This document shows positions 21,919-41,883 of a stretch of DNA of 62,440 bases, one piece after another. Source of the DNA: an uncultured Pelagibacteraceae bacterium (GTDB taxonomy: Bacteria > Pseudomonadota > Alphaproteobacteria > Pelagibacterales > Pelagibacteraceae); NCBI GenBank assembly GCA_902551445.1, contig CACDDB010000001.1, positions 1 to 62,440 of the forward strand. The letters run 5' to 3'. Below the pieces are notes generated by a model. That model did not search any database. It worked only from the letters and a program-made list of their open reading frames with translations, and was not told where the DNA came from. Both the position numbers and the translations under genes were made by a program. Within the stretch, counting starts at the first letter, position 1, and each line of letters opens with the position of its first letter.

Positions 21919-21921
21919 AAT

Positions 21922-22953
21922 TTAGCTGTTTTCTTTTCTTCCTCCAAAAACAGTATGAATTATTTTTGAAGGATGAACAGTTCCAACAATTTTATTATTT
22001 TCGTCAGTTACACCTACGGACTTTTCTTGTGATAAAATCTTCTCAGCTACATTTTCTATTATTTCGTCTTTTGAAACTTTTAGATTGCTTAAATTGTCTG
22101 AGGTTGGTGCATCCATTACGTCTTCTATTATTAAAACTTTTTCTCTTGGCACTTCTTCAGTAAATTTTTTTACATATTCAGTTGCTGGATTTAAAACAAT
22201 TTTTGCTGGGGTGTCCAACTGTTCAATTATTCCATCTTTCATAATTGCTATACGATCAGCAAGTTTTAATGCTTCATCAAAATCATGGGTTATAAACATG
22301 ATTGTTTTTTTTAATTTTTCTTGAAGTCTTAAAAATTCGTCTTGCATCTCCCTTCTAATTAATGGGTCAAGTGCAGAGAATGGTTCATCTAAAAACCAAA
22401 TATCGGGTTCTACAGCTAATGATCGAGCGATACCTACTCTTTGTTGTTGTCCACCTGAAAGTTCTCTTGGAAAATAATTTTCTCTGCCATCAAGACCAAC
22501 AAGTTTAACCATGTCCATAGCTTTATTGATGCTTTTCTCAGTCTCTATTCCTTTGATTTGAAGTGGAAAAGCAATGTTTTCCAAAACTGTTTTATGTGGA
22601 AGTAAAGCAAAACTTTGGAAAACCATTCCCATTTTGTTTCTTCTAAGTTCAATAAGTTCTTTTTCTTTTAATGAAAGCAAATCTTGGCCTTCTATATAAA
22701 TTTTTCCACCAGTCGCATCTGTTAATCTTGATATACATCTTAATAACGTAGATTTTCCTGAACCAGACAAACCCATAACAACTAGCATTTCTCCTTTTGC
22801 AACTTCAAAGGAAGCATTGTTCACGCCTACGATACATCCATTTTCTTGGAAAGTTTTTGCGTCTACATTTCCATTTGCTTCTTGGAGCATCTTTTTGGCG
22901 TTCGCACCAAATATTTTGTAGACAGATTCACATTTAATTACAGCGTCAGTCAT
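21922..22953 (-). CDS. tmoW: TMAO/betaine-type ABC transporter ATP-binding subunit
   Basis: GLSGSGKS, LSGGQQQR, DEPFSALDP (ProV-like). Confidence 0.85.
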   Translation of the reverse strand: MTDAVIKCESVYKIFGANAKKMLQEANGNVDAKTFQENGCIVGVNNASFEVAKGEMLVVMGLSGSGKSTLLRCISRLTDATGGKIYIEGQDLLSLKEKELIELRRNKMGMVFQSFALLPHKTVLENIAFPLQIKGIETEKSINKAMDMVKLVGLDGRENYFPRELSGGQQQRVGIARSLAVEPDIWFLDEPFSALDPLIRREMQDEFLRLQEKLKKTIMFITHDFDEALKLADRIAIMKDGIIEQLDTPAKIVLNPATEYVKKFTEEVPREKVLIIEDVMDAPTSDNLSNLKVSKDEIIENVAEKILSQEKSVGVTDENNKIVGTVHPSKIIHTVFGGRKENS

Positions 22954-23018
22954 TATCAATTAACAAGTTATACGATATTCAGTAAAATTAAAATCTATAT
23001 AATTGTTGTTTTCCCTCC

Positions 23019-23573
23019 CTAAAAATTTTTAATAAAATAAACTCTGGTATCAATACCTGTGCTTAAAAAACTTAAAACCTCTCCAGAAACCTTTGCTGTT
23101 TCGTTAATTCCAACATTGCTTCCGCTTACAGTATAGCCAGCAAAACATTTATTTTTCTCTTTGTCCCATTTAACAAATGTATCATCAATTTTATTACCGT
23201 TGATAGTATATAGTTCATAAGCTTTATAATTTAAAAAATGGGCAGCCATTATAGCACGTTGAGGAATAAGTTTAGTTATATTGCAAACTGCTTGGTATTG
23301 TTCTTTCGACAATCTATAATGATCAGTTCCATCATAAAATACTACAATGCCTGATGGAAGACTTGAAATCACTTCATTTACTTTTCGTTCTTTTTCAATT
23401 CTTTCCTCTTCTATTTTCATTTTTCTAATTAATTCATCGCCTCCACCCCAATAAATATTTAAAATAGCAAAAGATAAAATTACAAAAACTGTTATTGAAA
23501 CTAGGCCACCAAGTTGTCTTGCTGGTTCAGGTAACTCTTTTAATAATTTATTTAAATATTTGTTTTCTATCAT
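23019..23573 (-). CDS. Hypothetical membrane-anchored protein
   Basis: One hydrophobic helix, a coiled segment and a globular C-terminus; ATG at 23573 preferred. Confidence 0.65.
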   Translation of the reverse strand: MIENKYLNKLLKELPEPARQLGGLVSITVFVILSFAILNIYWGGGDELIRKMKIEEERIEKERKVNEVISSLPSGIVVFYDGTDHYRLSKEQYQAVCNITKLIPQRAIMAAHFLNYKAYELYTINGNKIDDTFVKWDKEKNKCFAGYTVSGSNVGINETAKVSGEVLSFLSTGIDTRVYFIKNF

Positions 23574-23581
23574 TATTTTAA

Positions 23582-23959
23582 CTACTCTTGTAATTTGCCG
23601 TTTTTCCAAATTCCTGCTTTTTGTTTACCATCTGACCAAGTAAATGTTCCTTTTCCATTCATAAAACCATTGGCCCATTCTCCTTCATATGTTGCACCAT
23701 TTGGGAAAGTTAAAATTCCTTGTCCACTCCATTCGCTGTTTTTAAATCCACCTTTGTAAATATATCCATTGGGCCAAATTTCTATTCCTTGGCCATTTTT
23801 TTTTGTTCCGGCCCATTCGCCTTCATAAGTTGTGCCATCTGTGGAAACCCATAATCCAAATCCGTCAGTGCAATTTCCTTCTTTACACCCTACTTTACGA
23901 GCTAAAGCCGAAGATGAAATTAAAAAACTTAAAAATATGATAAAGAGATATTTTTTCAT
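23582..23959 (-). CDS. Exported MORN-repeat protein
   Basis: Signal peptide; repeated Y.GEW.NG...G.G..TW.NG units. Confidence 0.88.
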   Translation of the reverse strand: MKKYLFIIFLSFLISSSALARKVGCKEGNCTDGFGLWVSTDGTTYEGEWAGTKKNGQGIEIWPNGYIYKGGFKNSEWSGQGILTFPNGATYEGEWANGFMNGKGTFTWSDGKQKAGIWKNGKLQE

Positions 23960-23984
23960 TCTTATATTTTACACGAAATAATAT

Positions 23985-24022
23985 AAAAAAAAATCCCCCC
24001 CAACAATGTTGGGAGAGATTTT
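23985..24022 (-). terminator. Rho-independent terminator after tmoX
   Basis: Minus-strand stem AAAATCTCTCCCAACA/TGTTGGGGGGGATTTT followed by a T run. Confidence 0.8.
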
Positions 24023-24050
24023 AATTTATTAGCTTTTACGCGCCCTATAA

Positions 24051-25016
24051 TTAATTCATCCACGCTTTCCAAACTGACTCATTGTCAGCTAACCATTTTT
24101 TAGCTGCATCTTCGTGAGTCATTTTGTCAAGGTCAACTAAAGCTGCCATTGCACCAATCTGTCCTGTAGAAAATGACATTTTCTTGAAAATTGCTGCTGC
24201 TCCTGGATGAGTTTTTGGAAAGTCTGCGTTAACAGCCTTTTTCAAATAACCATCTGGCGAACCACATTTACCGTCACCACCATCTTCTGGTCTGCAACCA
24301 GCTGTGTATGGAGGGAATTTTATAAATGTGAAACCAGCACCATCTGTAAAGTTTGGTGTCCAGTTAAAGATGATAGTTCCTCTATCTTCTTTTTTAGCTG
24401 CTTCTAACTCTGCCCAAAGTGCATCAGCACTTCCTGCAAATTTAACCCACCAAAGATCTCCTAAACCTAAAGCTTCAATTCTTTGAGGTATTAAATCACC
24501 GTGCCAAGTTTGTGGACCTTCTAACATTCTTCCTTTTCCATCTGAATCAGGTGTTACAAAGTTCGCTGCACAATCAGGATTTTTTAAAGCAGTCCAATCA
24601 GGTAGGCCTGGGCATTTCTCAGCAACCCAGTCAGGATATCCCATATCTTCAAGAGTTCTTGCTTCATGGTCTCCCCAATCAAGTATACCACCTTTGTCTA
24701 GAGCTGTTGTAAATGATTTACCAAAAGCAGATTCCCACACTTCATGTGATATTGTTACATCACCTATACGAATTGATTCATATACAGCTTGAGAGTCAGC
24801 TGGAACATATTTTACATTGTTACCATTGGCTTCAAAAATACCACCTATAACGTAAGCCATAACTACTTGGCTAGACCAGTTATGAGTTGGTATTACAATT
24901 GGTTCTGCACTATCGCCAGCTTTCTTTGCAGTTTTATCTCCCTGCATAAAGAAAACAAGTCCGATAACTACTAGAACTATGACACCGATTATTATCGGCA
25001 TATTCTTATTTTTCAT
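24051..25016 (-). CDS. tmoX: TMAO-binding periplasmic protein
   Basis: IPTHNWSSQ, HEVWESAF, FNWTPNFTD; divergent from tdm. Confidence 0.85.
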   Translation of the reverse strand: MKNKNMPIIIGVIVLVVIGLVFFMQGDKTAKKAGDSAEPIVIPTHNWSSQVVMAYVIGGIFEANGNNVKYVPADSQAVYESIRIGDVTISHEVWESAFGKSFTTALDKGGILDWGDHEARTLEDMGYPDWVAEKCPGLPDWTALKNPDCAANFVTPDSDGKGRMLEGPQTWHGDLIPQRIEALGLGDLWWVKFAGSADALWAELEAAKKEDRGTIIFNWTPNFTDGAGFTFIKFPPYTAGCRPEDGGDGKCGSPDGYLKKAVNADFPKTHPGAAAIFKKMSFSTGQIGAMAALVDLDKMTHEDAAKKWLADNESVWKAWMN

Positions 25017-25098: not shown

Positions 25099-27456
25099 AT
25101 GGTTGTCATTAAAAAAATGGCTGAAACAAGTTTTCATATAAAAGAGCCAGGATTGAATGTTTTACCACCTGGAGTTGAAAGATATGTTGTAAATGGCGGT
25201 GGCATAACTGGAATTCAGATTTTTCCTGATGATGAAATAGAAATAGTAAATAATGAAGGAAATCAAATTTGTGAGATTTCAGTTTTTAACAAAGATGGTA
25301 AGTCAGAAGCAGGAATTTTAAATCTAAAAGAAAGTAAAGACACATCAGAATTAAAAAAAATACTTTTGAGTAAAGATGAGAATTCGAAAATAGCTGCTTA
25401 CCAATTGAAAAAAAGAAATTTGGAAATTACAAAAGCTAAGGCCTCTATTGTTTTTGATAAAGATACAAGTTGGGGAGAAAAAGTAAAATTAAAATCAAAA
25501 GACAAATGTTATTGTATTTTTGGAGCCCCGGGTTCTGAAATGTTAGTCAGTGAACAAAACCCTCCTACTGATTTAACTATTTTTGTGAAAAGAGCAAAAA
25601 TAACAAAAGATAAAGAACATAAAGTAATTCCAGATCCTATGTTTGATCCTCTTAATGAAACAAACATAGATCGCTCGACTGCTATTTCATTTCAAGTAAA
25701 AGAAGGTGACTATATTCAGGTTATTTCACCAACTGGAAGACAATGTTCTGACTTTGTGGCTTTTGACACAGCAAAATTAGATAAAAAAATTGAAAAAGGT
25801 TTGGATTGGCAAACAACAAGGACTTTTATGGCAAGTACTTTTCCTGGACCAGGATTATTTTCTAAATTTTATGATACTGATCATGAACCTTTAATCGAAG
25901 TAATTAGAGATACAGTAGGAAAGCATGATACTTTTAATTTAGCTTGTACATCAAAATATTATGAAGATGCGGGATACTTTGGTCATGCAAATTGCTCTGA
26001 CAATTTAAATAACTCAATGGAAAAGTTTGGAGTTCAAAAAAAAAGAGGATGGCACGCTATAAACCTTTTTTTTAATACCTCCGCTGGTGGATTAAATTCT
26101 GTTTTGTCTGATGAATCTTTTTCTAGACCTGGAGATTATGTAATATTTAAAGCACTTAAAGATTTGACATGTGGAACAACTGCCTGTCCTAGTGATATTG
26201 ATGCTTGCAATTCATGGAACCCTACTGATATCTTCGTAAGAACTTATGATAAAAAAAAAGAATTTACAAAATCTTTTGCATTTAGAATGAAAACAGACTC
26301 AGAAACAAAATTAACTAGAAATACTGGATTCTATGAAAGAACTTCTAAATTAACTAGAAATTTTGTTGATGCTAGAGGTTTTTGGTTACCTAATGACTAT
26401 ACAAAGCATGGTGTTATTAACGAATATACCGCTTGCCGAGAAAAAGCAGTTGTTATTGATTTATCTTCATTAAGAAAATTTGAAATCTTGGGTCCTGATG
26501 CTGAAGAGTTAATGAATTATACCCTTACTAGAAACGTAAAAAAACTTTCTGTAGGTCAAGTTGTTTATTCTTCGATGTGTTATGAAAATGGATCAATGTT
26601 TGATGATGGGACTCTTTTAAAAATGAGTGACCATGGATTTAGATGGGTATGCGGCGACGAATATGCTGGAGAGTGGTTAAAAGAACAAGCAAAGAAAAAA
26701 AATTACAAGGTTCTGATAAAAAATTCTACGGACCAAATAAATAACATTTCTTTGCAAGGGCCCAATAGCAGGAAAATTCTTGAAAAATTTATTTTTACAC
26801 CACCAACTCAACCTACTATTTCCGAACTACAATGGTTTAGATTTACTATTTGCAGAGTTAAAGATTTAAAAGGCATACCATTAATTGTTTCTAGAACAGG
26901 TTATACGGGTGAATTAGGTTACGAAATATGGTGTCACCCAAAAGATGCTCCTAAAGTTTGGGATGTAGTTATGGAATATGGAAAAGATGAAGGGCTAATA
27001 CCCGCGGGATTTGGAGCTTTAGATTTATTAAGAATTGAAGCTGGATTAATTTTATTTGGCAATGAATTTGATGGACAAGTAGATCCTTTTGAAGCTGGAG
27101 TTGGTTTTACCGTTCCTTTAAAAACTAAGACTGAAGATTTTATAGGAAAAAGTGAGTTAATTAAAAGAAAGGAAAATCCACAGAAAAAGTTAGTAGGACT
27201 TGAATTAGTTGGAAAAGAAAAGGCTAATCATGGTGATTGTGTCCATATTGGAAGGTCACAGGTAGGAATAGTTACAAGTGGCTGCATCTCGCCTACTTTA
27301 AATAAAAATATTGCTTTATGTAGAATTGATGTTTCTCATTCAGAAATAGGAAAAGAATTAGAAGTTGGTAAAATAGATGGTCATCAAAAAAGAATTCCAG
27401 CAAAAATTGTAGAATTTCCACATTTTGATCCAAAAAAATTACGAGTTAGATCTTAA
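25099..27456 (+). CDS. tdm: TMAO demethylase (DUF1989 plus GcvT-like aminomethyltransferase)
   Basis: GRQCSDF, HDTFNLAC, NCSDN, ACPSD in the N region; DDGT, SRTGYTGELGYE, LRIEAG in the C region; start may be ATG 25117. Confidence 0.88.
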   Translation: MVVIKKMAETSFHIKEPGLNVLPPGVERYVVNGGGITGIQIFPDDEIEIVNNEGNQICEISVFNKDGKSEAGILNLKESKDTSELKKILLSKDENSKIAAYQLKKRNLEITKAKASIVFDKDTSWGEKVKLKSKDKCYCIFGAPGSEMLVSEQNPPTDLTIFVKRAKITKDKEHKVIPDPMFDPLNETNIDRSTAISFQVKEGDYIQVISPTGRQCSDFVAFDTAKLDKKIEKGLDWQTTRTFMASTFPGPGLFSKFYDTDHEPLIEVIRDTVGKHDTFNLACTSKYYEDAGYFGHANCSDNLNNSMEKFGVQKKRGWHAINLFFNTSAGGLNSVLSDESFSRPGDYVIFKALKDLTCGTTACPSDIDACNSWNPTDIFVRTYDKKKEFTKSFAFRMKTDSETKLTRNTGFYERTSKLTRNFVDARGFWLPNDYTKHGVINEYTACREKAVVIDLSSLRKFEILGPDAEELMNYTLTRNVKKLSVGQVVYSSMCYENGSMFDDGTLLKMSDHGFRWVCGDEYAGEWLKEQAKKKNYKVLIKNSTDQINNISLQGPNSRKILEKFIFTPPTQPTISELQWFRFTICRVKDLKGIPLIVSRTGYTGELGYEIWCHPKDAPKVWDVVMEYGKDEGLIPAGFGALDLLRIEAGLILFGNEFDGQVDPFEAGVGFTVPLKTKTEDFIGKSELIKRKENPQKKLVGLELVGKEKANHGDCVHIGRSQVGIVTSGCISPTLNKNIALCRIDVSHSEIGKELEVGKIDGHQKRIPAKIVEFPHFDPKKLRVRS

Positions 27457-27804
27457 ATGAAAAGTACTACTGCTTTACTTGAATTTTGGGAAGAACAGAT
27501 GAAACAATCTCACACATCAAGTAATTATTTTTTTAGAAAGTCGCCCTCTCACTATCATATGATGCTTTTAATAATGGCTCATTATAAACATAATAAAAAT
27601 ATAACTGTTGAACAATTAAAAACAAGATTATTCAAAACTTCTAGGCCAAAATCGGCACTTATAATTAATGAAGCTTGTGAAAAGGGTTTCTTCTACTTAG
27701 AGAAAACATCAGATGACCAAAGAAAAAAATATATCAAACCTACTGGAAGTTTTGTGAAAGAATTTGAAGATTATCTAAAAAAATTAAAAGATATATCTCT
27801 TTAA
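27457..27804 (+). CDS. Hypothetical winged-helix (MarR-like) protein
   Basis: D.RKKYIKPT wing-like motif after a predicted HTH; abuts the tdm stop. Confidence 0.55.
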   Translation: MKSTTALLEFWEEQMKQSHTSSNYFFRKSPSHYHMMLLIMAHYKHNKNITVEQLKTRLFKTSRPKSALIINEACEKGFFYLEKTSDDQRKKYIKPTGSFVKEFEDYLKKLKDISL

Positions 27805-30491
27805 CCAGTATTTTTCATTGCCGCAGATATGCCTGCTATTGATGTCATCATTGCATCATTAAGATATTTCTTATCATTAGATTTAAATCTTTTCTTTGAC
27901 ATTTTGTTCATAACTACGGCTTGTAGAATGTTTAAAACCTCAGAATAAATATTTCTAACTATGACTGTTGTTCTAAATTTTTTTCTTTGATTAATTATTT
28001 CTCTCGGTGTTATGTATTTATTTAATTTTTTAATTGTTTCAAACTCAGATCTAAGTTTTTTACCCACTTCTCTTAATTTTTTGTCTGCAAGGCTATTTTC
28101 ATAAACCTCTGATATCTCTGGGTCAACTTTTGAAATAACCATGTCTAAAATATCCATTGTAGAATTAAAAAATGGCCAATTTTTTTCCATATCTGTAAGA
28201 ATGGTTTTATAATTTTTAACTGATGAATATTGTAAGGCATCACCAGTTCCCAACCAAGCAGGCAACATTAATCTTATTTGCGTCCATGCAAATACCCAAG
28301 GTATTGCTCTTAAACTTTGAATGTTATCTACATTTTTTCTTTTAGAAGGTCGTGATCCTATTGACAATTTTCCAAGCGCCAAGTGTGGTGTAACAGTTTT
28401 AAAATATCTTATAAAATCTGAGTTCTCATTTATATTTTTTCTATAAGCTGAGGTAGAAATTTTTGTCATTTCTTCAATTAATTTTCTCCAACTATCTTTA
28501 GGAAATGGAGGTGGATTTAAAGTAGCCTGCATTACAGACCCTATGTAGCTACATAAATTATATTTCGCTAAAGGTTCATAGCCATATTTTTGTTGGATCA
28601 TTTCTCCTTGGTCAGTAATTCTAATACGGCCATATATCGAATTTGGCGGTTGAGACCTCATCGTTGCTTGAATTGGCCCTCCACCTCTTCCGTGTGAACC
28701 GCCCCTACCATGGAAAAAAGTGATGTCAATTTTATATTTTTTTGCGATGATTAAAACTTCTTCTTGAAGTTTATATTGATGCCAGCTAGCAGATAATTTT
28801 CCAGCATCTTTGCTAGAGTCTGAATAACCAATCATAATTTCTTGTTTGTTTTTGGTTAATTTTCTATACCAACTTAATGAAAAAAGTTTTTCCATAATTG
28901 ATTTTGCATTTTTTAAATCTTGCAAAGTTTCAAAAAGTGGAACTACTCTTAATTTATTTTGAATATTTGCCTGCATTTGCATTAAATAAACTGCTAAGAC
29001 ATCCGAAGCCGCTGAAGTCATTGATATTACATAAGCACCTAAACATTCTGATGGTTCATCAGCTAAAAGTTTAAAAGTTGACCAAACTTCTTTATTTTCT
29101 TTATTTTTAAAATTAAAATTTTTGAAACTTTTTCTATTTTTCTTCATTTCACTTACTAAATAATTTATTTTTTTATTTTCATCCCAATTTAAATAATTAG
29201 AGTTATTTTTTTTCTTTACATATTCTGCTAATAGCTGTGAATGTCTTGATGACTCTTGTCTTATGTCTAATTTTGCTAGATTTATACCGAAACATTTAGC
29301 TCTTCTCATTAAATCAAGCAAATCACCACTTGCAATATTTTCATTTTGGTTTTGTTCTAATGACTCTCGTACAACTCTTAAGGGTTTTAGAATTTCCTCT
29401 TTAGAAGATAAAAGTTTTTTTTCATCTAATGGTTTTTTTGCTACCAAATGTCTTTCTATTAATCTATGTGTCTTTCTCATTTTATCTCTTAATGGTCTTA
29501 AATAAACTCTATAAGGTTCAAAAGTTTTTCCAGTAGTTTTTAGAATTCTTTTTGAACATTTTTCCATTGAAAGTCCGCTAATTAATTTTGTTAATTCTTT
29601 CTCGTATAACTTTGCTGCTTCCCATCTTGATAAAAGTATTACTTCTTTAGTTATGGTTGCTGTTACATTTGGATTACCATCTCTATCTCCTCCCATCCAA
29701 GATCCAAATTCAATTGGATTAAAATTTTTAGGTAAACCCTTTCCCATATTTTTTATGAAAATAGCGTTTAATCTTCTATAAACTTTTGGAATAGTTTCCC
29801 AAAGACTATCTTCGATCACCGCTAATCCCCACCTTGCTTCTTCGGAAGGAGTTGGTTTGAATCGTTTTATATCATCAGTATTCCAAATAATTGTAAACTC
29901 ATCATAAAGTTTTTTATCTAAAATTTTTAATCGTGATGGTTTATCCTTCAAAAGATTTCTTTGATCCATTATCTCTGTTATTTTGTGGTATTTTTGTATT
30001 AAAGTTCTTCTTTTAACTTCAGTTGGATGGGCTGTAAGAACTATTCCAATATGAAGGTTTTTTGCAATATTATAAATTTTTTGAGGTTTAATTTTTTTGT
30101 TTTTAAAAAGATTTTCGAAAATTTCCTCAATAAAAATATTTTTATGTTTATCTTTCAAACCAGAATTTTCAAATTCATCTAGTTTTCTAGAGGCATCTAC
30201 GGATTCAGAAATATTAATAAAATTCATAAAGTGAGTAAATGCTCTTGCTAATTTAAATATTTTAATTGGTTTGAGTCTTTGAATTTCTGAAGTAATTTTA
30301 TTAAATCTATTTTTATTATTTTTATTTTTAGTGTTTGCTTTTGACAGCAATCTTATTTTCTCTACTAAGTGAAAAAAACCTTCTCCTTCTTGTTTTTTTA
30401 TTACTCTCCCTAAAATATTCCCTAAATACCTGACATCGTCCCTCAAAGATTTTGTGGGTATTCTTTCGTAATAGAGATCTCTTTTTAGCAT
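27801..30491 (-). CDS. ppc: Phosphoenolpyruvate carboxylase
   Basis: LTAHPTE, GGDRDGNP, MIGYSDSSKDAG, FHGRGG, LRAIPW, C-terminal MKNTG. Confidence 0.96.
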   Translation of the reverse strand: MLKRDLYYERIPTKSLRDDVRYLGNILGRVIKKQEGEGFFHLVEKIRLLSKANTKNKNNKNRFNKITSEIQRLKPIKIFKLARAFTHFMNFINISESVDASRKLDEFENSGLKDKHKNIFIEEIFENLFKNKKIKPQKIYNIAKNLHIGIVLTAHPTEVKRRTLIQKYHKITEIMDQRNLLKDKPSRLKILDKKLYDEFTIIWNTDDIKRFKPTPSEEARWGLAVIEDSLWETIPKVYRRLNAIFIKNMGKGLPKNFNPIEFGSWMGGDRDGNPNVTATITKEVILLSRWEAAKLYEKELTKLISGLSMEKCSKRILKTTGKTFEPYRVYLRPLRDKMRKTHRLIERHLVAKKPLDEKKLLSSKEEILKPLRVVRESLEQNQNENIASGDLLDLMRRAKCFGINLAKLDIRQESSRHSQLLAEYVKKKNNSNYLNWDENKKINYLVSEMKKNRKSFKNFNFKNKENKEVWSTFKLLADEPSECLGAYVISMTSAASDVLAVYLMQMQANIQNKLRVVPLFETLQDLKNAKSIMEKLFSLSWYRKLTKNKQEIMIGYSDSSKDAGKLSASWHQYKLQEEVLIIAKKYKIDITFFHGRGGSHGRGGGPIQATMRSQPPNSIYGRIRITDQGEMIQQKYGYEPLAKYNLCSYIGSVMQATLNPPPFPKDSWRKLIEEMTKISTSAYRKNINENSDFIRYFKTVTPHLALGKLSIGSRPSKRKNVDNIQSLRAIPWVFAWTQIRLMLPAWLGTGDALQYSSVKNYKTILTDMEKNWPFFNSTMDILDMVISKVDPEISEVYENSLADKKLREVGKKLRSEFETIKKLNKYITPREIINQRKKFRTTVIVRNIYSEVLNILQAVVMNKMSKKRFKSNDKKYLNDAMMTSIAGISAAMKNTG

Positions 30492-30517
30492 TTGGTATAA
30501 ACTATTTGCTTTATATT

Positions 30518-31408
30518 TTAAGTTTTACTATTTAAAGCTAACTTTACAGTTTCTCCCATAACTGATGGGTTTTTTGAAATAGAAACTCCACATTCTTTTA
30601 AAAGTTCAACTTTCTCAACTGCACTTTCTCCATAGGCAGACACAATTGCACCTGCATGTCCCATAACTCTTCCTTTTGGAGCTGTTAATCCAGCTATGTA
30701 AGCTATAACTGGTTTTTTCATATTTTCTTTTGCAAACTTACCTGCTGCAACTTCTTGTGGTCCTCCTATTTCCCCGATCATTAAAACTGCCTTGGTTTCA
30801 TCATCTTCTTCAAATTTTTCCAATATATCTTTAAAAGAACTACCGTTTATAGGATCTCCACCTATTCCTACACTAGTTGATATACCTATGTTTAAATTTT
30901 TTAATTGTTGTGCCGCTTCATAACCCAAAGTACCTGATCTTCCAATAATTCCAACATTGCCTTCTTTATATATGTGTCCCGGCATAATTCCCAACATTGC
31001 CTTTCCTGGACTAATAACTCCAGCGCAGTTTGGTCCTATTAATGTCATCTTCTCTACTCTTGAATATCTTCTCATATAACGTTTTATTTTTATCATGTCA
31101 TGCGAAGGTATCCCGTCAACTATCGCAACACATGTTTTTATTCCTGCATCAGCTGCTTCCATGGCTGAGTCTGCAGCAAAAGCTGGTGGAACAAATAATA
31201 TTGAAGCTGTAGCTCCGGTTTTTTTTACAGCTTCTTTAACGGTATTAAATACTGGAAGATTTAAGTGTGTTAAACCTCCTTTTCCGGGAGTCACTCCTCC
31301 TACTATACTTGATCCATATTTTATCATTTCTTCTGCGTGGAAAGATCCCATTTTCCCAGTAAATCCTTGAATTAAAATTTTTGTTTTTTTATCAATTAAA
31401 ACTGCCAT
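30518..31408 (-). CDS. mtkB: Malate-CoA ligase (malate thiokinase) alpha subunit, SucD-like
   Basis: QGFTG..GSFH, KRYMRRY...KMTLIGPNCAG, phospho-His motif MGHAGA; lies between mtkA and ppc. Confidence 0.82.
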   Translation of the reverse strand: MAVLIDKKTKILIQGFTGKMGSFHAEEMIKYGSSIVGGVTPGKGGLTHLNLPVFNTVKEAVKKTGATASILFVPPAFAADSAMEAADAGIKTCVAIVDGIPSHDMIKIKRYMRRYSRVEKMTLIGPNCAGVISPGKAMLGIMPGHIYKEGNVGIIGRSGTLGYEAAQQLKNLNIGISTSVGIGGDPINGSSFKDILEKFEEDDETKAVLMIGEIGGPQEVAAGKFAKENMKKPVIAYIAGLTAPKGRVMGHAGAIVSAYGESAVEKVELLKECGVSISKNPSVMGETVKLALNSKT

Positions 31409-31410
31409 AA

Positions 31411-32574
31411 TTACTTTCCTAAAGCTTTTACTGCTTTGTTTGCTGCGTCTTCTAGTGTGTTTGCTTCAATGTACTTTATTTTACTTTCTTGTAATATTTT
31501 ATTTCCTTTATCAACATTTGTGCCAGCTAATCTTATTACTAAAGGAACTTTAATTTCTATTTTTTGAAGTGCTTGTACAATGCCTTCGGCAACCCAGTCA
31601 CATCTATTTATTCCAGCAAAAATGTTTACTAATATAACTTTAACTTTTTCATCCATTGAAATTAGTTTAAATGCTTTAACTATTTTTTCAGGAGTAGCTC
31701 CGCCTCCTACGTCTAAAAAGTTTGCAGGTTCACCTCCTGCTAATTTTATCATGTCCATGGAAGCCATTGCTAGTCCTGCTCCATTAATTATATTCCCTAT
31801 ATTTCCTTCAAGACTTACATAGTTAAGACCTCTATCAGAAGCATATACTTCGTTAGCATTTTCTTGGGTTTTGTCTCTTAATTCAGATACTTGGTTTCTT
31901 CTAAATAAAGCATTGTTATCAAAACTCATTTTACAATCTAAAGCTAATATTTGATCTTGACTAGAAATAACAAGTGGATTCACTTCGACCATTGTTGCGT
32001 CTAACTCGCTAAAAGCTCTATAACATCCAATTATAGTATCTGCGGCTCTTGCAATTAGTTTTGGCTCAATTTTTAATCCAAATGCTATTTCTCTTGCTTG
32101 AAACTTTTGCATTCCAACCGCAACCTCTATTTTAGATCTTATTATCGTTTCGGGTTTCTTTTTTGAAATTTCTTCAACACTCATTCCTCCTTCTGTAGAA
32201 GCAACAACCATTATGCTTTCTGAGCTCCTATCAAAAACTAATCCTAAATATAATTCTTTTTTAATTTCAGTAGCTTCTTCAATGTAAACTCTATTTGTAA
32301 TTTTGCCTTCAGGGCCAGTCTGATTTGTAACCAGTTTTTTTCCTAAAAGTTTATCTGCTGCTTGGGCAACCTCTAACGCACTATTACAAACAATAATACC
32401 TCCTGCTTTTCCTCGAGCACCTGAGTGTATCTGGGCTTTAACAACCCATCTAGATCCTCCAAGTTCCCTTGCTTTATTTTCTGCATTTTCAGGGCTATAG
32501 ACAATTCCACCTCTAGGAATAGTTACGCCAAATCCTGATAAAATTTTTTTTGCCTGATATTCGTGTATATCCAT
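31411..32574 (-). CDS. mtkA: Malate-CoA ligase (malate thiokinase) beta subunit, SucC-like
   Basis: MDIHEYQAK, KAQIHSGARGKAGG, NIFAGINRCDWVAEG (MtkA-type as recalled, versus NIFGGI in SucC). Confidence 0.85.
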   Translation of the reverse strand: MDIHEYQAKKILSGFGVTIPRGGIVYSPENAENKARELGGSRWVVKAQIHSGARGKAGGIIVCNSALEVAQAADKLLGKKLVTNQTGPEGKITNRVYIEEATEIKKELYLGLVFDRSSESIMVVASTEGGMSVEEISKKKPETIIRSKIEVAVGMQKFQAREIAFGLKIEPKLIARAADTIIGCYRAFSELDATMVEVNPLVISSQDQILALDCKMSFDNNALFRRNQVSELRDKTQENANEVYASDRGLNYVSLEGNIGNIINGAGLAMASMDMIKLAGGEPANFLDVGGGATPEKIVKAFKLISMDEKVKVILVNIFAGINRCDWVAEGIVQALQKIEIKVPLVIRLAGTNVDKGNKILQESKIKYIEANTLEDAANKAVKALGK

Positions 32575-32575
32575 T

Positions 32576-33514
32576 TTATTTACTTTGAATAAGTTTATCT
32601 ATGTTTACTATATTTTCGGCCATACGTGCGGAGGCAGCATCAATCATTCTTCCGTCTAATTGTGCTGCACCTTTACCTTCTTTTGCTGCTTTGTCTAATT
32701 CTTTAAGAATTCTTTTGGCCTTACTTACCTCTGATTCAGGAGGTGAAAAAACTTTATTGGCTAGATCAATTTGTGATGGATGTATTGCCCACTTTCCTTC
32801 AATACCAATTGCTGCTGCTCTTTTAGCAGATGCTATGTAAGCATCTGGGTCATTAAAATCTCCAAACGGTCCATCAATAGCTCTTAATCCATAAGCTCTA
32901 CAAGTCATAACTAGTTGTGACAAACCATGATGCCATTGATCTCCAGGATAATCAGGATTTAATCCTCCTATTATAACTGTCCTTGCTCTTAAGCTTGCCG
33001 CATAATCGGCGACGCCGAAATGAAGTGCTTCCAGTCTACTGCTTGACTTTGCTATTTCTTTAATATTTGACATACCTAATGCCGTCTCAATTAAACACTC
33101 AATACCAATTTTGTTTTTTATTTTTTTACTTGTTTCGATTTGAGTCAATAAGCAATCAACCATATATACATCGCTGAATGTTCCTGCTTTTGGAATAAGT
33201 ATTGTGTCGACTTTTTCACCTGCTTCTTCTACAATTTCCACAAGGTCCCTATACATATAATGTGTATCTAGGCTATTAATTCTTACAGAAATAGTTTTTC
33301 CTTTTTCTTTCCAATTAATCTCTTTAAGAGCCTTTATAACATTTGCTCGGGCTGAAATTTTATCATTTGGAGAAACCGCATCTTCAAGATCTAAAAATAT
33401 GTAGTCAGCATTAGAATTTAACGCCTTCTCAAACATTTTAGGAGAAGATCCAGGCACGGCCAATTCACTCCTATGCAACCTAGACTTTGCTGGCTTATAA
33501 AATTGATGGCTCAT
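32576..33514 (-). CDS. mcl: Malyl-CoA lyase (CitE family)
   Basis: RSELAVPGS, LDLEDAV, LHFGVADYAAS, DGPFGDF, GKWAIHPSQ; first gene of the mtkAB-ppc operon. Confidence 0.87.
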   Translation of the reverse strand: MSHQFYKPAKSRLHRSELAVPGSSPKMFEKALNSNADYIFLDLEDAVSPNDKISARANVIKALKEINWKEKGKTISVRINSLDTHYMYRDLVEIVEEAGEKVDTILIPKAGTFSDVYMVDCLLTQIETSKKIKNKIGIECLIETALGMSNIKEIAKSSSRLEALHFGVADYAASLRARTVIIGGLNPDYPGDQWHHGLSQLVMTCRAYGLRAIDGPFGDFNDPDAYIASAKRAAAIGIEGKWAIHPSQIDLANKVFSPPESEVSKAKRILKELDKAAKEGKGAAQLDGRMIDAASARMAENIVNIDKLIQSK

Positions 33515-33642: not shown

Positions 33643-34971
33643 ATGTCAAATTTGCCTACAAAAGCAAAGGTTGTTATAATCGGAGGAGGTATTCATGGCT
33701 TAAGTACAGCATGGAAACTTTCAGAAACATACAAAAATCCAAATGACATTGTTGTATTAGAAAAAAAAGATACAGCAGCGGGTGCTAGTGGAATAGCTTG
33801 TGGAGTAGTTAGAAACAACTACTTTCAGCCAGCAATGAGACAATTAATGGCTCACTCTGTTGAAGTTTGGGAAAGTGATCCAAAAGCATTTAAATACAAT
33901 CCAGTAGGATACATGCAAATCTCACCTGAAATTATGCATAAAGATGTTGCAAGTATTTACGAGCAACAAAAGGCTATTGGTTATGAATCTGTATTCATTG
34001 AAGGCGAAAAAGATTGCATGAAATATATGAAGGGAATGTTTGATGATTGGCAAGCACAAGGAATAACTTCTGTTCTTCATGAAAAAAAAGGTGGATACGC
34101 ATTTAATAAAGATTCAATTAAAGCAATAGAAAGTAAAGCTAACGCTAATGGAGTAAATGTTCATAAGGGGGTTAAGGTAACGGGTTTTAAAAGAGGAAGT
34201 AATAGTAACGCTATAACAGGAGTAGAAACTAATAAAGGAACGATAGATTGTGATCAAGTGGTAATTGGAGCTGGTCCCTGGGTGAGAGATTTTTGGAACA
34301 TGTTAGATTTACCAAAAACAACTGATGTAAAAAGTAAAGATGGAAAAATGCATACCGTAGATATGTGGACATACTGGTTTTTACAAGAAGGTGTTTTAGG
34401 TGTTGATGCGGACTATTTAAGAACTAATGATGGAAAACTACCCCCTGTCATTCATGTTGATACAGATGCTCCGTTGTATTCTGATAAAGATAAAAAGCTA
34501 ATAACTGATAAACTTTGGGGAATTTATTATAAACCGGATATTGAAGGTTTGGGTGTGCAAGGTGGTACTTCTCCTTACATAGTGCAAAAACATTTTGATG
34601 AAGTAAAAGTGGATCCATATGGAATTGAGTCACCAGACTACCAAACTACAGATGCATTTTCTGAAATGTGGACATCTGCTTTGGCTCATTGTCAAAAACG
34701 TTTTGAAGGAAAGTCCAATTTATATAGAAAAGGTCCTTCAGGTGGATTGGGCTGTTTAACACCAGACTCATTTCCTATCTTCGATAGATTTTGTGAAAAT
34801 GTTTATATGATAGCTGATGCAAACCATGGTTATAAAATGTTAGGTGTTGGTCATTTAGTTGCTCAGGAAATCTTAGGGAAAGAAAGTGAATTATTAAAAC
34901 CATTTAGATTCAACCGATACGCGAAGGGAGAATTGCACCCCACTTCGAACAGTCCTTTTCCTTGGAGTTAA
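33643..34971 (+). CDS. mgdA: FAD-dependent oxidoreductase, N-methylglutamate dehydrogenase subunit A / SoxB-like
   Basis: GGGIHG, GASGIACGVVRNNYFQP, NHGYKM, C-terminal SNSPFPWS; NMG pathway context. Confidence 0.7.
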   Translation: MSNLPTKAKVVIIGGGIHGLSTAWKLSETYKNPNDIVVLEKKDTAAGASGIACGVVRNNYFQPAMRQLMAHSVEVWESDPKAFKYNPVGYMQISPEIMHKDVASIYEQQKAIGYESVFIEGEKDCMKYMKGMFDDWQAQGITSVLHEKKGGYAFNKDSIKAIESKANANGVNVHKGVKVTGFKRGSNSNAITGVETNKGTIDCDQVVIGAGPWVRDFWNMLDLPKTTDVKSKDGKMHTVDMWTYWFLQEGVLGVDADYLRTNDGKLPPVIHVDTDAPLYSDKDKKLITDKLWGIYYKPDIEGLGVQGGTSPYIVQKHFDEVKVDPYGIESPDYQTTDAFSEMWTSALAHCQKRFEGKSNLYRKGPSGGLGCLTPDSFPIFDRFCENVYMIADANHGYKMLGVGHLVAQEILGKESELLKPFRFNRYAKGELHPTSNSPFPWS

Positions 34972-35040: not shown

Positions 35041-36510
35041 ATGACTGATCTAGAAAAACATGTAAATCAACCAGGCAGAGATAAACTTGTTAAAAAAGTT
35101 AGAGAAAAAATTAATGAATTAGGAATTACATATATTTATTACCAATTTATATCTGTAACAGGACGTGTTGTTGGTAAAGGAATTCCTGCAGACCATTGGG
35201 AAAGAACTGCAGAAAAAGGTTTTCAATTGGTTTATGGATCTACTGCTAACTTATTTGTAGACAGACATAAAAATTATATTGGTTACGGTCCAGAAGCAAT
35301 GGAGCTTGTTGGCATACCTGATCCTGAAACTTTCTGTCAATTACCTTGGGACAAAAGAATTGGAAGAGTTTTTGTTACATGTTTTAGAAATAGAGAGGAA
35401 AGACAAAATCCAGGAGGACATTTAACCTCTGATTGTCGAGGAAACCTAAGAATATTTATGGATGAATTTCAGAAAAAACATGGATTAGAATTGAGAGTTG
35501 GAACTGAACCTGAAATGATGTGGTTGACAAAGAATCCTGATGGAACTCCTACTGGATCAGGTTTTTCTAAACCATACTGTTATCACATTGATCAATTTGA
35601 GTCGTTGAGACCTGTATTTATGAAAGTAATTGAATATGCTTCAGCCATGGGTTTAGATATGATTCAAGGTGACCATGAAGATGCGCCAGGACAATTAGAA
35701 TTAAACTGGACATATGATAATGTCTTAAGAAACGCTGATAGACTTTCTACTTACAGGCAAATTTGTGCACAAGTAGCAAGGGAACACAATTTAATAGCAT
35801 GCTTTATGACAAAACCATTTATGGGTGTATCTGCAAGTGGTTGTCATACAAACATGTCTTTATGGAAAGGCGGAAAAATTGTAACAAACAAATTAGGTCA
35901 TAAAAAATTACCAGGAGTAGAGGAAGTTTTTGGCTATGTACAGGGAGGCACAAATACTTTTATGCCTGATACTAAAGACATGCAATTACCTGGTAAAATT
36001 GGTTTACAATCCATTGCCGGAATAATGGAACACTTGCCTGCTTTAACTGCATTAGGATCTTCAACAGTTAATTCTTACAGAAGACTTTGGGATCAGGGTT
36101 TCTGGGCTCCAGTTTATGCTGATTGGGGATATCAAAATAGAACTTGCGGTTTAAGAGTATCAGCTCCTGGAAGATTCGAATATAGGTCGGTTGATTCAAT
36201 GCACAATCCATATCTATTGGGTGCAGCTATATTAAAAGCGTGTGACCATGGTATTTCAAAAAAACTAGTTCCATCTAAGCCTGAGTCTAGAAGTATGTAT
36301 GAAGCTAAAAAAGAAGGTAAAGATGTCAAAAAACTTCCATTAAGTTTGGGTGAAGCATTGGATAGACTATCTGAAGATGAAGTTATTAAATCAGCATTGC
36401 CAGATGAGATGTATAAAGTTTTCCATTGGTATAAGAATGATGAGTGGGAAAAATTCTTAGGTGCTACAACTCAATGGGATTTAGATACTTATTTGGATTG
36501 TCTTCCATAG
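35041..36510 (+). CDS. Glutamine synthetase-like (gamma-glutamyl ligase) protein
   Basis: GTEPE, DHEDAPGQLE, TKPF, SGCH.N.S, NSYRRL, NRT..LR, RFEYR. Confidence 0.85.
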   Translation: MTDLEKHVNQPGRDKLVKKVREKINELGITYIYYQFISVTGRVVGKGIPADHWERTAEKGFQLVYGSTANLFVDRHKNYIGYGPEAMELVGIPDPETFCQLPWDKRIGRVFVTCFRNREERQNPGGHLTSDCRGNLRIFMDEFQKKHGLELRVGTEPEMMWLTKNPDGTPTGSGFSKPYCYHIDQFESLRPVFMKVIEYASAMGLDMIQGDHEDAPGQLELNWTYDNVLRNADRLSTYRQICAQVAREHNLIACFMTKPFMGVSASGCHTNMSLWKGGKIVTNKLGHKKLPGVEEVFGYVQGGTNTFMPDTKDMQLPGKIGLQSIAGIMEHLPALTALGSSTVNSYRRLWDQGFWAPVYADWGYQNRTCGLRVSAPGRFEYRSVDSMHNPYLLGAAILKACDHGISKKLVPSKPESRSMYEAKKEGKDVKKLPLSLGEALDRLSEDEVIKSALPDEMYKVFHWYKNDEWEKFLGATTQWDLDTYLDCLP

Positions 36511-36531
36511 CAATTATTAGGAGAAAAAAAT

Positions 36532-37473
36532 ATGTGCGGAATAGCTGGGCTTATTCATAGAGGTAAGTCCTCAAATGTGGGTGAAGAACTGCAAAGCATG
36601 CTTCAGGCTTTAAAACACAGAGGTCCTGACTCTACAGGATATGCTTTGTATGCAGACAATGACGGTCAAAACTTCATAATGAGATTTAAAGTTGGTGAGA
36701 ACGTAGCAGAAGGAAGTACCTCTGCTAATGAAGATGCAAGTGTATATGATGAAAGAAAAAAATTAGTAGATAAAAATCTTTCAGATTTAGGTGCAACAAT
36801 TGTTAAAGAAGAAAGGTTGACTCCGTATTCTTTTAGATACGAAATTAAATACGATAAGGATCTAATGGAATTTTCAAAAAAAATTGAAAGTGTTGAAATG
36901 GTTGAAATTCTTTCTATAGGAAAATCTCTTGAACTAATTAAAGATCTTGGAGACGCAGCTGCAGTCTCAGAAAGATATGGTTTAAATAAAGTAAAAGGAA
37001 CACATGCAATAGGTCACGCAAGAATGGCTACTGAGTCTGGTGTTGACATTAAATCAGCTCACCCTTTCTGGGGCTATCCTTTTAGTGATGTATCTGTTGT
37101 TCACAATGGTCAATTAACAAACTATTGGAATAATAGAAGAGCCTTAGAAAATAAAGGCATGAGATTTATGTCTGAATGCGACTCTGAACTTATTGCGGTA
37201 TATTTGGCAGAAAAAATGAGAAATGGTGCAACTTTAGAGGAAGGCATGAAAGATTCACTATCTGGATTAGATGGAGTTTTTACTTACTTTGTTGCAACAA
37301 AAGATTCGCTTGGAATGGCTAAAGACACTATGGCTGCTAAACCGTTAGTATTATATGAGTCAGACGATTTGGTAGCGATGGGTTCTGAAGAAATAGCAAT
37401 TAGATCTATACTTCCACAAGAAATAACAACTTATGATCCTTTTGATGGAGAAGTAAAAGTATGGCAAATTTAA
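36532..37473 (+). CDS. mgsA: N-methylglutamate synthase subunit A (class II glutamine amidotransferase, GlxB-like)
   Basis: MCGIAG, HRGPDSTG, GHARMATES, HNGQL, DSE. Confidence 0.82.
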   Translation: MCGIAGLIHRGKSSNVGEELQSMLQALKHRGPDSTGYALYADNDGQNFIMRFKVGENVAEGSTSANEDASVYDERKKLVDKNLSDLGATIVKEERLTPYSFRYEIKYDKDLMEFSKKIESVEMVEILSIGKSLELIKDLGDAAAVSERYGLNKVKGTHAIGHARMATESGVDIKSAHPFWGYPFSDVSVVHNGQLTNYWNNRRALENKGMRFMSECDSELIAVYLAEKMRNGATLEEGMKDSLSGLDGVFTYFVATKDSLGMAKDTMAAKPLVLYESDDLVAMGSEEIAIRSILPQEITTYDPFDGEVKVWQI

Positions 37474-38315
37474 AAACTACTCAGAAAAAAACTAAAGCCC
37501 AATCAATGGGCATGCACACTGAGGTCCTAACTGGAAAAACTCAGCAGAAATTCTTTAATCCTGACGAAGCAGAAAATTTTTTCTATTGGGGAACGCATGA
37601 TGTGGACTTTAATAAAAGAACGGAACTAGATGTTAAAGACATGGATTGTAAAGATGCAAATAGAAAAATAGACTCATTAATGAGTGAGGGTTATGGAACA
37701 ATTGTAATAAAAAATCCACAAGGAAAGCACAGCTTGGGCGTTGGAATATTAAATAAACTTAACCTAATTTTTGAAGGAAGCCTGGGTTATTTTGGTGTTG
37801 GTTCAATAGACGGTCCTATAGTTAGAGTTAATGGACGTGTTGGTTGGTCTTGCGCAGAAAACATGATGGCTGGAAAAGTCGTTATAGAGAAAAATGCTGG
37901 ATCTTGCTTTGGAGCAGCAATAAGAGGTGGAGATTTGATTTGTAAAGGGAGTGTTGGGGCGAGAACAGGTATTGACCAGAAAGGTGGTTCAATAATTGTT
38001 GGAGGAGACGCTGGTGCATTTACAGGTTTTATGATGCAAAGAGGCAGAATTGTTGTATTGGGTGATGTTGGAATTAATTTAGGAGATTCTATGTATGACG
38101 GTACAATATATGTGGGTGGTAAAATTGGTTCATTTGGTAGTGATGCGGTAGAAGCTCCTATGACAAAAAATGACATAGATTGGCTTAATAGAAAACTTAA
38201 AGTAGCAGAAATTGGAGAGAATTTTGATGTATCAAAAATGACTAAAGTTGTAGCTGGCAAAAAACTTTGGAATTACGATGCTTTAGAACCAACAGAGAAA
38301 AAAGGAGCAATATAA
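37461..38315 (+). CDS. mgsB: N-methylglutamate synthase subunit B (GXGXG beta-helix, GlxC-like)
   Basis: AENMMAG, G.VGAR.GI..KGG, GFMMQRG; Gly-rich repeats. Confidence 0.82.
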   Translation: MANLKTTQKKTKAQSMGMHTEVLTGKTQQKFFNPDEAENFFYWGTHDVDFNKRTELDVKDMDCKDANRKIDSLMSEGYGTIVIKNPQGKHSLGVGILNKLNLIFEGSLGYFGVGSIDGPIVRVNGRVGWSCAENMMAGKVVIEKNAGSCFGAAIRGGDLICKGSVGARTGIDQKGGSIIVGGDAGAFTGFMMQRGRIVVLGDVGINLGDSMYDGTIYVGGKIGSFGSDAVEAPMTKNDIDWLNRKLKVAEIGENFDVSKMTKVVAGKKLWNYDALEPTEKKGAI

Positions 38316-39700: not shown

Positions 39701-39708
39701 AGGTAAAC

Positions 39709-40119
39709 ATGGTTAAAAAAAAGAAAAATAAAAAGAAAAACGTTAAAGAGGCCAAAGGTCAGCTTGGTAAAAAGAAAGAAACAGCTAGAGAAAAAATGAT
39801 TGGCCAAACTATTGGATATAGATATGACGTAAACTTATTACCTGACTATAAAAAACTTACTCCATTTTTAAAAAAATATATCGAACACATGGGGTGGGAC
39901 GATCTTAATTGGTTAGAAGATGTTCATATGGGTTATGAAGAAGACAGGCCTGCTGTTTTTGATAGAAATGCTAATGGCTGGGTAACTATTCCTAATAAAA
40001 TTAAGTTACCAGATAACCAGCAAGATAGGGACATGATTGCAAGAGAGTTGCTTGTTAAATTTCAAATGTCTCCTAATCATCCATTAGTTGATCTAAAAAA
40101 AGCTTACTTAAAATTCTAA
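39709..40119 (+). CDS. Hypothetical protein in the mgs operon
   Basis: 136-aa ORF with AAGG RBS, 8 bp after mgsC; Lys-rich N-terminus. Confidence 0.75.
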   Translation: MVKKKKNKKKNVKEAKGQLGKKKETAREKMIGQTIGYRYDVNLLPDYKKLTPFLKKYIEHMGWDDLNWLEDVHMGYEEDRPAVFDRNANGWVTIPNKIKLPDNQQDRDMIARELLVKFQMSPNHPLVDLKKAYLKF

Positions 40120-40252
40120 TTAAATATAATTTTATCTACTTATAGTTGATTTATCTGTAAATAATGGTGCTCATAGTAGGTTTTTTACCATTGTACTCTT
40201 CGGTGCATTCATTAGAGTCACACTAATTTGTTTAAACAAATGGAGGTTAGAG

Positions 40253-41653: not shown

Positions 41654-41664
41654 AGGAGGATAAT

Positions 41665-41883
41665 ATGGCAGTAACAAATTGGGTAGATCATTTAAGTGCC
41701 AAAGAAGTTGCAGGCGCAATTTATCCTGGCGTAGGAACTGAAGGAATTTTAGTTCTTATTGGCTTTGTTCTGTGGATTGGTTGGCATGTGCTTCAGGCTA
41801 TGCAAGAGAATGATAAATTGAGTAGTCTTGCAAGAAAAAGGCATGGGCCAAACTCTCACAAAAGCAATGTTACCGACTGGTAA
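41665..41883 (+). CDS. Small single-helix membrane protein co-transcribed with amt
   Basis: AAGGAG RBS; one hydrophobic segment (ILVLIGFVLWIGWHV). Confidence 0.75.
   Translation: MAVTNWVDHLSAKEVAGAIYPGVGTEGILVLIGFVLWIGWHVLQAMQENDKLSSLARKRHGPNSHKSNVTDW

Follow-up and report, generated by a model that had tools for sequence, protein, structure and literature searches.

A malyl-CoA lyase, malate thiokinase and PEP carboxylase operon inserted in a SAR11 TMAO and methylamine locus, and a tentative route from methyl carbon to serine

What might a SAR11 lineage gain from carrying part of the serine cycle within its locus for the use of methylated amines? The question is raised by a stretch of 62,440 nucleotides from an uncultured member of the Pelagibacteraceae (contig CACDDB010000001.1 of assembly GCA_902551445.1), referred to here as the window, in which the genes for malyl-CoA lyase (mcl), both subunits of a malate thiokinase (Mtk) and phosphoenolpyruvate (PEP) carboxylase (ppc) stand among one-carbon (C1) genes for trimethylamine N-oxide (TMAO) and methylamine. 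SAR11 bacteria are described as needing glycine or serine from outside. By the same descriptions, methyl compounds serve them as a source of energy, through oxidation, and for nothing else. The answer toward which we lean, tentatively and at somewhat below even probability, is that malate is split here to glyoxylate, which becomes glycine and captures methylene-tetrahydrofolate (methylene-THF) as serine in an open pathway. The host genome of the window (G000) has 729 kb and is 56% complete, and much of the analysis therefore refers to a near-complete relative as well (G217; 98% complete, 1,201,460 bp read). A genome with close mcl-mtk orthologues is called a carrier, and a genome that is at least 95% complete is called near-complete.

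The operon consists of four intact open reading frames (ORFs) on the minus strand with gaps of 1, 2 and 26 bp: mcl, the first gene (32576..33514, 312 amino acids (aa)), the Mtk beta subunit (31411..32574, 387 aa), the Mtk alpha subunit (30518..31408, 296 aa) and ppc (27801..30491, 896 aa), which follows the trio in this lineage. The original prediction had described these ORFs correctly, and its gene order mcl-mtkA-mtkB-ppc is right if, as we take the Methylorubrum naming to be, the beta subunit is mtkA and the alpha subunit mtkB. Its assignment of the products as Mcl, malate thiokinase and Ppc is borne out by their family matches, and these are likely the enzymes encoded, with activities predicted from family. 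The best PDB match of the mcl product is the malyl-CoA lyase 5ugr (E 3e-114, query residues 2-304), followed by 4l9y (E 6e-84), and the product falls below the cut-off for the CitE and RipC models. The beta subunit scores 629 bits on the malate--CoA ligase model PRK14046 (cut-off 604), on which the SucC of G217 reaches 512, and Ppc scores 939 bits on PRK00009 (cut-off 815). The alpha subunit has SucD-family matches; it passes succinate--CoA ligase alpha models only, and no Mtk-alpha model was among its matches. The window Ppc is 64-76% identical to the Ppc of non-carriers and 50-53% identical to the cassette-linked Ppc of seven other carriers, and judged by this similarity it is of the host's common Pelagibacter type.

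The malate-thiokinase-type signatures that had been pointed out in the ligase, NIFAGINRCDWVAEG and KRYMRRY, are both present in its subunits. Among ligases matching a search pattern, the motif NIFAGINRCD occurs in 91/91 betas of the window-type clade, and NIFGGI(M/L)RCD in 8/8 SAR11 SucC and also in the G217 SucC; the KRYMRRY-type motif is common among the alphas of the window-type clade and absent from SAR11 SucD. The motifs thus separate this clade from SucC and SucD. A quick IQ-TREE phylogeny of the beta subunit (66 rows, leaving out 35 near-redundant loci and the locus of an unpublished genome) agrees with this separation: the window beta joins the betas of gammaproteobacterial sga-mcl-mtk-hpr clusters and stands apart from SAR11 SucC with SH-aLRT support of 100, the contrast being nine SAR11 SucC only in a tree that holds no biochemically characterised Mtk. 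A second, more distant SucC-like match is present in 12/12 near-complete carriers, and in G217 a separate SucCD was confirmed (mdh-sucC-sucD); none lies in the assembled 56% of G000. Both the ligase phylogeny and the search for a separate sucCD, which had been proposed as checks, therefore came out on the side of a malate thiokinase.

The four genes form a 5.7 kb insert between tdm-hyp115 and mgdA, which agrees with the location between tdm and the N-methylglutamate genes originally given. Since tdm, hyp115 and mgdA are adjacent, as an empty site, in 5/5 genomes tested, the four-gene block is an insertion there. Over approximately 20 kb around the insert the window and G217 are collinear, with a nucleotide identity of 85%; between the two genomes the median reciprocal-best-hit identity is 77.8%, and the four operon genes are 94-98% identical. 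A contig from an independent run spans the alpha-ppc junction. Contigs from RNA libraries (4 runs, 3 studies) cover pieces of all four genes, which indicates presence only and not level, strand or a single transcript. A promoter and terminator scan did not rise above chance (35 vs 43.5 and 6 vs 5.9).

Mapped across SAR11, close orthologues at 84-100% identity occur in 22/301 Pelagibacteraceae genomes, a total that includes one unpublished genome (G223) on which no other result rests. Locus anatomy was counted over 21 carrier loci. Conservation extends to three of the four genes only, mcl and those for the two ligase subunits, and ppc lies directly downstream of the alpha subunit in 10/21 loci; the claim of a four-gene core operon accordingly stands for the trio and fails for ppc, which is not a fixed part. 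The claim that the operon is embedded in a C1 locus is similarly right here and at 15/21 carrier loci, which lie among TMAO/methylamine genes, and wrong for the 5/21 that lie at a his-operon site away from C1 genes; the remaining locus (1/21) is beside fdh and fhs. The his-site copies lack ppc. Among the best 80 of 511 loci of a GTDB scan, which were used for site counts, the Pelagibacteraceae contribute 27 his-site and 9 C1-site copies. A ppc without the cassette is found in 36/46 non-carriers of the genus. An Sga-like gene lies within the cassette locus in 4/21 (G263, G129, G009 and G024), and pyruvate carboxylase (pyc) is downstream of the trio in one alphaproteobacterial locus (L085). The trio is patchy and mobile. 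Additionally, we observed a second, stop-riddled ppc of the common type besides the cassette-linked ppc at G263:C1:447638-450231, and a ppc split by frameshift-like breaks in G245:C1 and G173:C1.

Two further sets of carriers were considered. In the alphaproteobacterial genomes G301-G307 (L064, L067, L068, L075, L082, L084 and L089) the trio is 81-89% identical to that of the window and lies outside a C1 context; isocitrate lyase (Icl) and malate synthase were both not found (0/7), and no Sga-type gene was found in the two examined. The marine Gammaproteobacteria G308, G309 and G312 (L074, L090, L101, L396-L398 and L387-L389), together with G310 and G311, have assemblies of about 1 Mb with mcl-mtk. 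Icl was found in 5/5 of these and malate synthase in 0/5, an sga-hpr-glycerate kinase operon is present in 3/3 examined, and the Mtk-type beta is the sole succinyl-CoA-synthetase-like beta found in 3/3 genomes. This set has the appearance of a streamlined lineage with a serine cycle of the Icl type.

These distributions bear on whether the products act on malate at all. The ligase may instead serve another dicarboxylate or hydroxy acid or back up succinyl-CoA synthetase, and the lyase may act on another acyl-CoA, with the C1 location being a convenient insertion site. Such a role would suit an alpha subunit that available models do not separate from SucD, a trio found at unrelated sites, and the gammaproteobacterial genomes in which the Mtk-type beta is the only gene of its kind found. 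However, the beta subunit passes the malate--CoA ligase cut-off, near-complete carriers have the separate SucC-like gene described above, and among the best 80 of 511 loci, mcl lies immediately before the ligase genes wherever the locus extends far enough to include them. We consider another substrate very improbable.

In the pathway that we favour, Ppc would fix bicarbonate onto PEP and Mdh would yield malate, genes for both having been found. Going by their families, Mtk would then use ATP to make malyl-CoA, and Mcl would cleave this to acetyl-CoA and glyoxylate. An aminotransferase adjacent to glcD would turn glyoxylate into glycine, GlyA would add methylene-THF from Tdm and Mgd to give serine (genes found), and serine and glycine would go to biomass with little returned to central carbon. 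The aminotransferase step follows a proposal for strain HTCC1062, in which AspC adjoining glcDEF makes glycine from glyoxylate (PMC3870248, in the section available). Similarly, the title of a figure in 10.1101/2025.02.17.638773 states that heterologous glyoxylate transamination together with Mtk and Mcl rescues the glycine/serine auxotrophy of P. putida. The genes for GlyA, Eno, GpmA, Mdh, SucCD, PpdK, Icl, Fhs, FolD and Fdh were all confirmed in G217. A glcD-like gene there has a class I aminotransferase gene next to it, and G217 also has a malic enzyme; the aminotransferase and the malic enzyme both score below their family cut-offs. Of the uses originally envisaged, the supply of glyoxylate and glycine fits these data.

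The direction of the two malyl-CoA steps also has to be considered. The Mcl and Mtk reactions are reversible. In the opposite direction, Mcl could join acetyl-CoA to glyoxylate and Mtk could free malate with a gain of ATP, so that glyoxylate from Icl or glycolate would be used at a lower energy cost than by malate synthase. Beyond reversibility, this reverse use would be in keeping with Icl in most carriers, with the absence of ppc from the his-site copies, and with the seven alphaproteobacterial carriers outside a C1 context that have neither malate synthase nor Icl. Nevertheless, malate synthase (PF01274, glcB) is present in 78/80 genomes, including G000 and 12/12 near-complete carriers, and therefore the trio does not replace malate synthase; such a replacement in SAR11 was considered and rejected. 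Reverse use also leaves unexplained the links to ppc, pyc, Sga, C1 genes and SerBK (discussed below) and the loss of glycine cleavage genes (gcv). The Icl-positive, malate-synthase-negative Gammaproteobacteria were withdrawn as evidence for it, as the sga-hpr-gck genes in 3/3 examined point to forward use. We judge reverse use improbable; forward cleavage is the best reading because of the neighbours of the trio (ppc, pyc, Sga and C1 genes), the malate synthase that is kept, and the gcv losses.

With regard to these losses, gcvP is missing from 5/12 near-complete carriers vs 2/73 non-carriers of the genus, and among multi-contig genomes alone from 5/7 carriers vs 2/27; the genomes are related, so that p-values for gcvP against the cassette overstate the association. 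The gcvTHP site is closed up within a contig in 4/5 gcv-less carriers (G217, G237, G277 and G291, with flanks as in G141, G263 and G126), and was not checkable in the fifth, G257. In single-gene trees of GlcB and DnaX the five fall in three groups. With gcv gone, the C1 unit of serine would be left with two sources, external methyl groups or serine made by another path. In G237, G257, G277 and G291, serC and Sga were also not found, and an external supply of C1 units would therefore be needed. The two genomes of the genus that are near-complete yet have neither gcvP nor a cassette match are G261 and G285. No glycine riboswitch match was found in G217, G237 and G277; loss of the glcB glycine riboswitch was rejected as a cassette-specific feature, 5/6 non-carriers tested also lacking the one at glcB.

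Whether the pathway closes into a canonical cycle of the Methylorubrum type, via Sga, Hpr and glycerate kinase, can be addressed more firmly. Four of its nine enzymes are clustered here, four cassette loci contain the Sga-like genes noted above, and G217 has SHMT, enolase, Ppc, Mdh, Mtk and Mcl. A check for hydroxypyruvate reductase in G217 returned two D-2-hydroxyacid dehydrogenases; one of them is SerA-like and its gene adjoins serC, and the other is unassigned. Against a canonical cycle, a search with an Sga-type sequence from a SAR11 locus gave no match in G000, in G217 despite its completeness, or in 8/12 near-complete carriers, with Sga found in the other 4/12. Class II glycerate kinase (PF13660) was found in 0/80 genomes and class I (PF02595) in 0/5, class III not having been searched for, and G000 is just 56% complete; enolase and Mdh are not in its assembled part. 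The search of the genome thus divides: glyA, enolase and icl are in G217, and Sga and class I/II glycerate kinase were not found. No ethylmalonyl-CoA genes were seen in a check by sequence motifs only. Closure through serine dehydratase was rejected as well, with SdaA in 0/5 genomes and the pyridoxal phosphate (PLP) dehydratase-family matches of G217 being a diaminopropionate ammonia-lyase and three that, judging by sequence and gene context, we read as CysK, TrpB and ThrC. The canonical cycle is largely refuted for G217, and for this system we give it next to no chance.

Two things that the original prediction did not include nevertheless reopen the question of assimilation by another route: serBK, serC and serA form an operon on a different contig, and glycine cleavage has been lost. 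The genes beside some cassettes are serC, a SerA-like dehydrogenase gene and a DUF1015 gene (serBK). Contig C5 of G000 has the order trpB2-DUF1015-serC-serA, and G217 also has serBK-serC-serA; among 59 genomes of the genus, serC was found in these two only. A DUF1015 type of 400-409 aa occurs in 10/301 genomes, of which 8/10 are carriers. It lies in the cassette locus of G030, G051, G085 and G154, and inside the C1 locus without a cassette in G003 and G158. By genus, the overlap with carriers is 3 (5 SerBK genomes and 4 carriers of 24), 3/3 of 6 and 2/2 of 86, counts that come from about three lineages with most genomes incomplete. In G085 we also observed a cobalamin riboswitch (L289:2567-2659) and the gene of a TonB-dependent B12-type receptor just downstream of the cassette and DUF1015.

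The function of the DUF1015 protein is central to this route. In the available text of a GapMind 2026 preprint (10.1101/2024.10.14.618325), a DUF1015 gene complements E. coli serB and a Bacteroides gene is needed for serine use; SerBK is proposed there to be a serine kinase, its chemistry being left unresolved. For the predicted structure of the G000 protein (pLDDT 79), the first nine places among the PDB matches are filled by SerK/SbnI serine kinases and one Pyrococcus protein to which no function is assigned (Foldseek E 1.7e-4; VIA Z 7.1-9.5, next 2.5). The best VIA match (Z 9.5, root-mean-square deviation 6.3, 215 aligned) is a remote one, and the fold shows no function. A PDB sequence search returned nothing meaningful. 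A shorter DUF1015 (364-375 aa, 33-36% identical to that of G000 where compared) lies directly behind trpB2 at L293-L298 (G042, G231, G203, G101, G176 and G247); no serC-serA is beside it in these six genomes, and serC was not found in the five of them searched. TrpB2 uses O-phosphoserine (PMC11917138, in part), and a kinase role therefore fits a DUF1015 beside trpB2. G217 has SerBK and no trpB2.

If SerBK, SerC and SerA took serine to 3-phosphoglycerate, they would replace Sga, Hpr and Gck; GpmA, Eno, Ppc, Mdh, Mtk and Mcl would regenerate glyoxylate with release of acetyl-CoA, and Icl would allow a net gain of C3/C4 compounds. By our own count this closed cycle would cost 2 ATP and 2 NADH per acetyl-CoA, equal to the canonical one. 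G217 would hold every gene for the loop, provided that the three enzymes run in this direction and the aminotransferase takes glyoxylate; glyA, gpmA, eno, mdh and icl are all there. The phosphatase step normally pulls serine synthesis, and SerB, the phosphatase in question, was not found in 5/5 genomes tested. The restriction of serC to G000 and G217 within the genus likewise argues for the closed cycle, as does the overlap of SerBK with the operon, which holds within each of three genera and includes four adjacent cases. Two redundant glycine routes should not co-occur in streamlined genomes. The resemblance of the DUF1015 model to SerK/SbnI kinases, the short DUF1015 beside trpB2, the G217 SerBK without trpB2 and the proposed kinase role in Bacteroides serine use (10.1101/2024.10.14.618325, in part) are all consistent with a kinase.

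Several observations oppose such a closed cycle. SerBK also complements the loss of serB and so can support serine synthesis (10.1101/2024.10.14.618325, same text). The retained malate synthase would make an ATP-wasting loop with Mtk and Mcl, and 5/5 small-genome gammaproteobacterial carriers with Icl lack malate synthase, unlike the SAR11 carriers. The 400-409 aa SerBK was not found in 14/22 carriers, the serBK and cassette operons are unlinked in G000 and G217, and only about three lineages are concerned. No glycine riboswitch was found at gathering score near serBK-serC-serA in the loci scanned, nor anywhere in G000 or G217. In addition, natural communities dominated by SAR11 put only 2-6% of C1 into biomass (PMC3160333, in part). 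A closed phosphoserine cycle is therefore unlikely in our estimation, although well short of implausible. The broader view that some SAR11 lineages are not pure methylovores, having closed the cycle, dropped glycine cleavage and passed methyl carbon and bicarbonate into central metabolism, is doubtful to the same degree.

The open route from malate to glycine and serine has its own difficulties. Full-length Icl, an alternative source of glyoxylate, is in G000 and 11/12 near-complete carriers. The serBK-serC-serA genes of G000 and G217 belong to a type able to replace SerB in E. coli (in the preprint text available), and if they make serine here, the trio is redundant for glycine. Glycine cleavage is kept in 7/12 near-complete carriers, and the his-site loci place the trio away from C1 genes in 5/21 carriers. 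The glcD-adjacent aminotransferase of G000 is broken at a joint, with the last 98 aa only. Loss of the glcB riboswitch in gcv-less carriers is no support and was given no weight. The malate-splitting direction is a likely one, and the fluxes are predicted from the genes.

The surroundings of the insert are those of a SAR11 TMAO locus. On its left flank lies hyp115 (27457..27804, plus strand), which was rejected as a cassette gene, being native to the site between tdm and mgdA in the 5/5 genomes mentioned above. It has no NCBIfam or Pfam family; with atlas rank 19 and HTH_27 on 11% of members, it is a possible MarR-like regulator, as a lead only. The TMAO demethylase gene tdm (25099..27456, plus strand; NF053776 1102 > 1100) precedes it, and its product would be the source of methylene-THF. 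The window tdm is 64% identical to that of G217, its neighbours being 83-99% identical, and two tdm types seem to have been exchanged among C1 loci. The right flank is an FAD oxidoreductase gene divergent from mcl (33643..34971, plus strand; no family above cut-off), which from its context we take to be an N-methylglutamate dehydrogenase subunit. It is followed by the N-methylglutamate-pathway block (35041..43439, plus strand), with what are presumably a GS-like gene and three mgs-like genes, an Amt gene and a type III glutamate--ammonia ligase gene (42114-43439; TIGR03105 626 > 470), the other genes of the block being below cut-offs. Upstream of tdm are betaine/TMAO-type ABC transporter genes, presumably tmoXWV, with two small genes between (19765..25016, minus strand), 96-98% identical to G217 and with a ProX-like match below cut-off.

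We would like to note some features elsewhere in the window. Positions 16630-18288 encode a 552-aa protein whose first part is of the glycerol-3-phosphate dehydrogenase type and is fused to a second part of the homoserine dehydrogenase type, and a joint near 17450-17458 links regions that are distant in G217. The aminotransferase at G000:C8 is interrupted near 2090 by a joint of similar kind, also with a short overlap, and both joints are likely amplification chimeras. An IMES-2 RNA motif (13988-14127) and two tRNAs (5329-5402 and 7682-7753) are also present, as are glycosyltransferase and FkbM genes, bounded by a tRNA on one side and by a tyrosine recombinase gene on the other (12696-13649).

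The enzymes themselves are known. In the literature covered, which did not extend to subscription papers and supplements, we found neither this operon described for SAR11 nor a serine cycle through phosphoserine, and SAR11 pangenome supplements may well list the genes; the words "phosphoserine" and "serC" are absent from the main text of 10.1101/2025.02.17.638773. If the open route is real, roughly 7% of sampled Pelagibacteraceae species would be able to obtain glyoxylate by splitting malate and to capture methyl carbon in serine, which would change their nutrient needs, the recipes for their cultivation, and the part they play in what becomes of carbon from TMAO and methylamine. A cycle closed by the phosphoserine route would be a natural variant of the serine cycle, one missed by pathway screens based on sga, hpr and gck, and SerBK would gain a clear physiological role. 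Synthetic biology would gain a route avoiding the glyoxylate drain reported for hydroxypyruvate reductase (PMC6162302, in part).

Among known systems, the serine cycle of Methylorubrum (Methylobacterium) extorquens AM1 (PMC2948502, as far as available) uses the same enzyme families, here clustered and tied to a C1 source. In contrast to AM1, Sga and class I/II glycerate kinase were not found in the near-complete relative G217, Icl and malate synthase are present, ppc is of the host's own type, and the trio is patchy and mobile. The modified serine cycle engineered in E. coli (PMC6162302, in part) likewise relies on Mtk, Mcl, Ppc and SHMT, with a glyoxylate transaminase other than Sga and with Icl as an option, and it bypasses hydroxypyruvate. 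It differs in returning serine by serine dehydratase, not found here in 5/5 genomes, where the candidate natural route is phosphoserine. The SerBK systems of Clostridioides, Clostridium and Bacteroides (10.1101/2024.10.14.618325, in part) are alike in that a PF06245 gene shares an operon with serC and serA, that SerB was not found, and that the fold resembles SerK/SbnI. Here, however, the gene co-occurs with, and sometimes adjoins, mcl-mtk-ppc and TMAO/methylamine genes, a link not mentioned in the available text of that preprint. Lastly, SAR11 methylovory (PMC3160333, in part) involves the same kind of TMAO/methylamine locus, and the THF-linked genes fhs, folD and fdh are in G217. Whereas the strains of that study were predicted to be without such a route, the 5.7-kb insert, the phosphoserine operon and the loss of gcv may here give methyl carbon a way into biomass.

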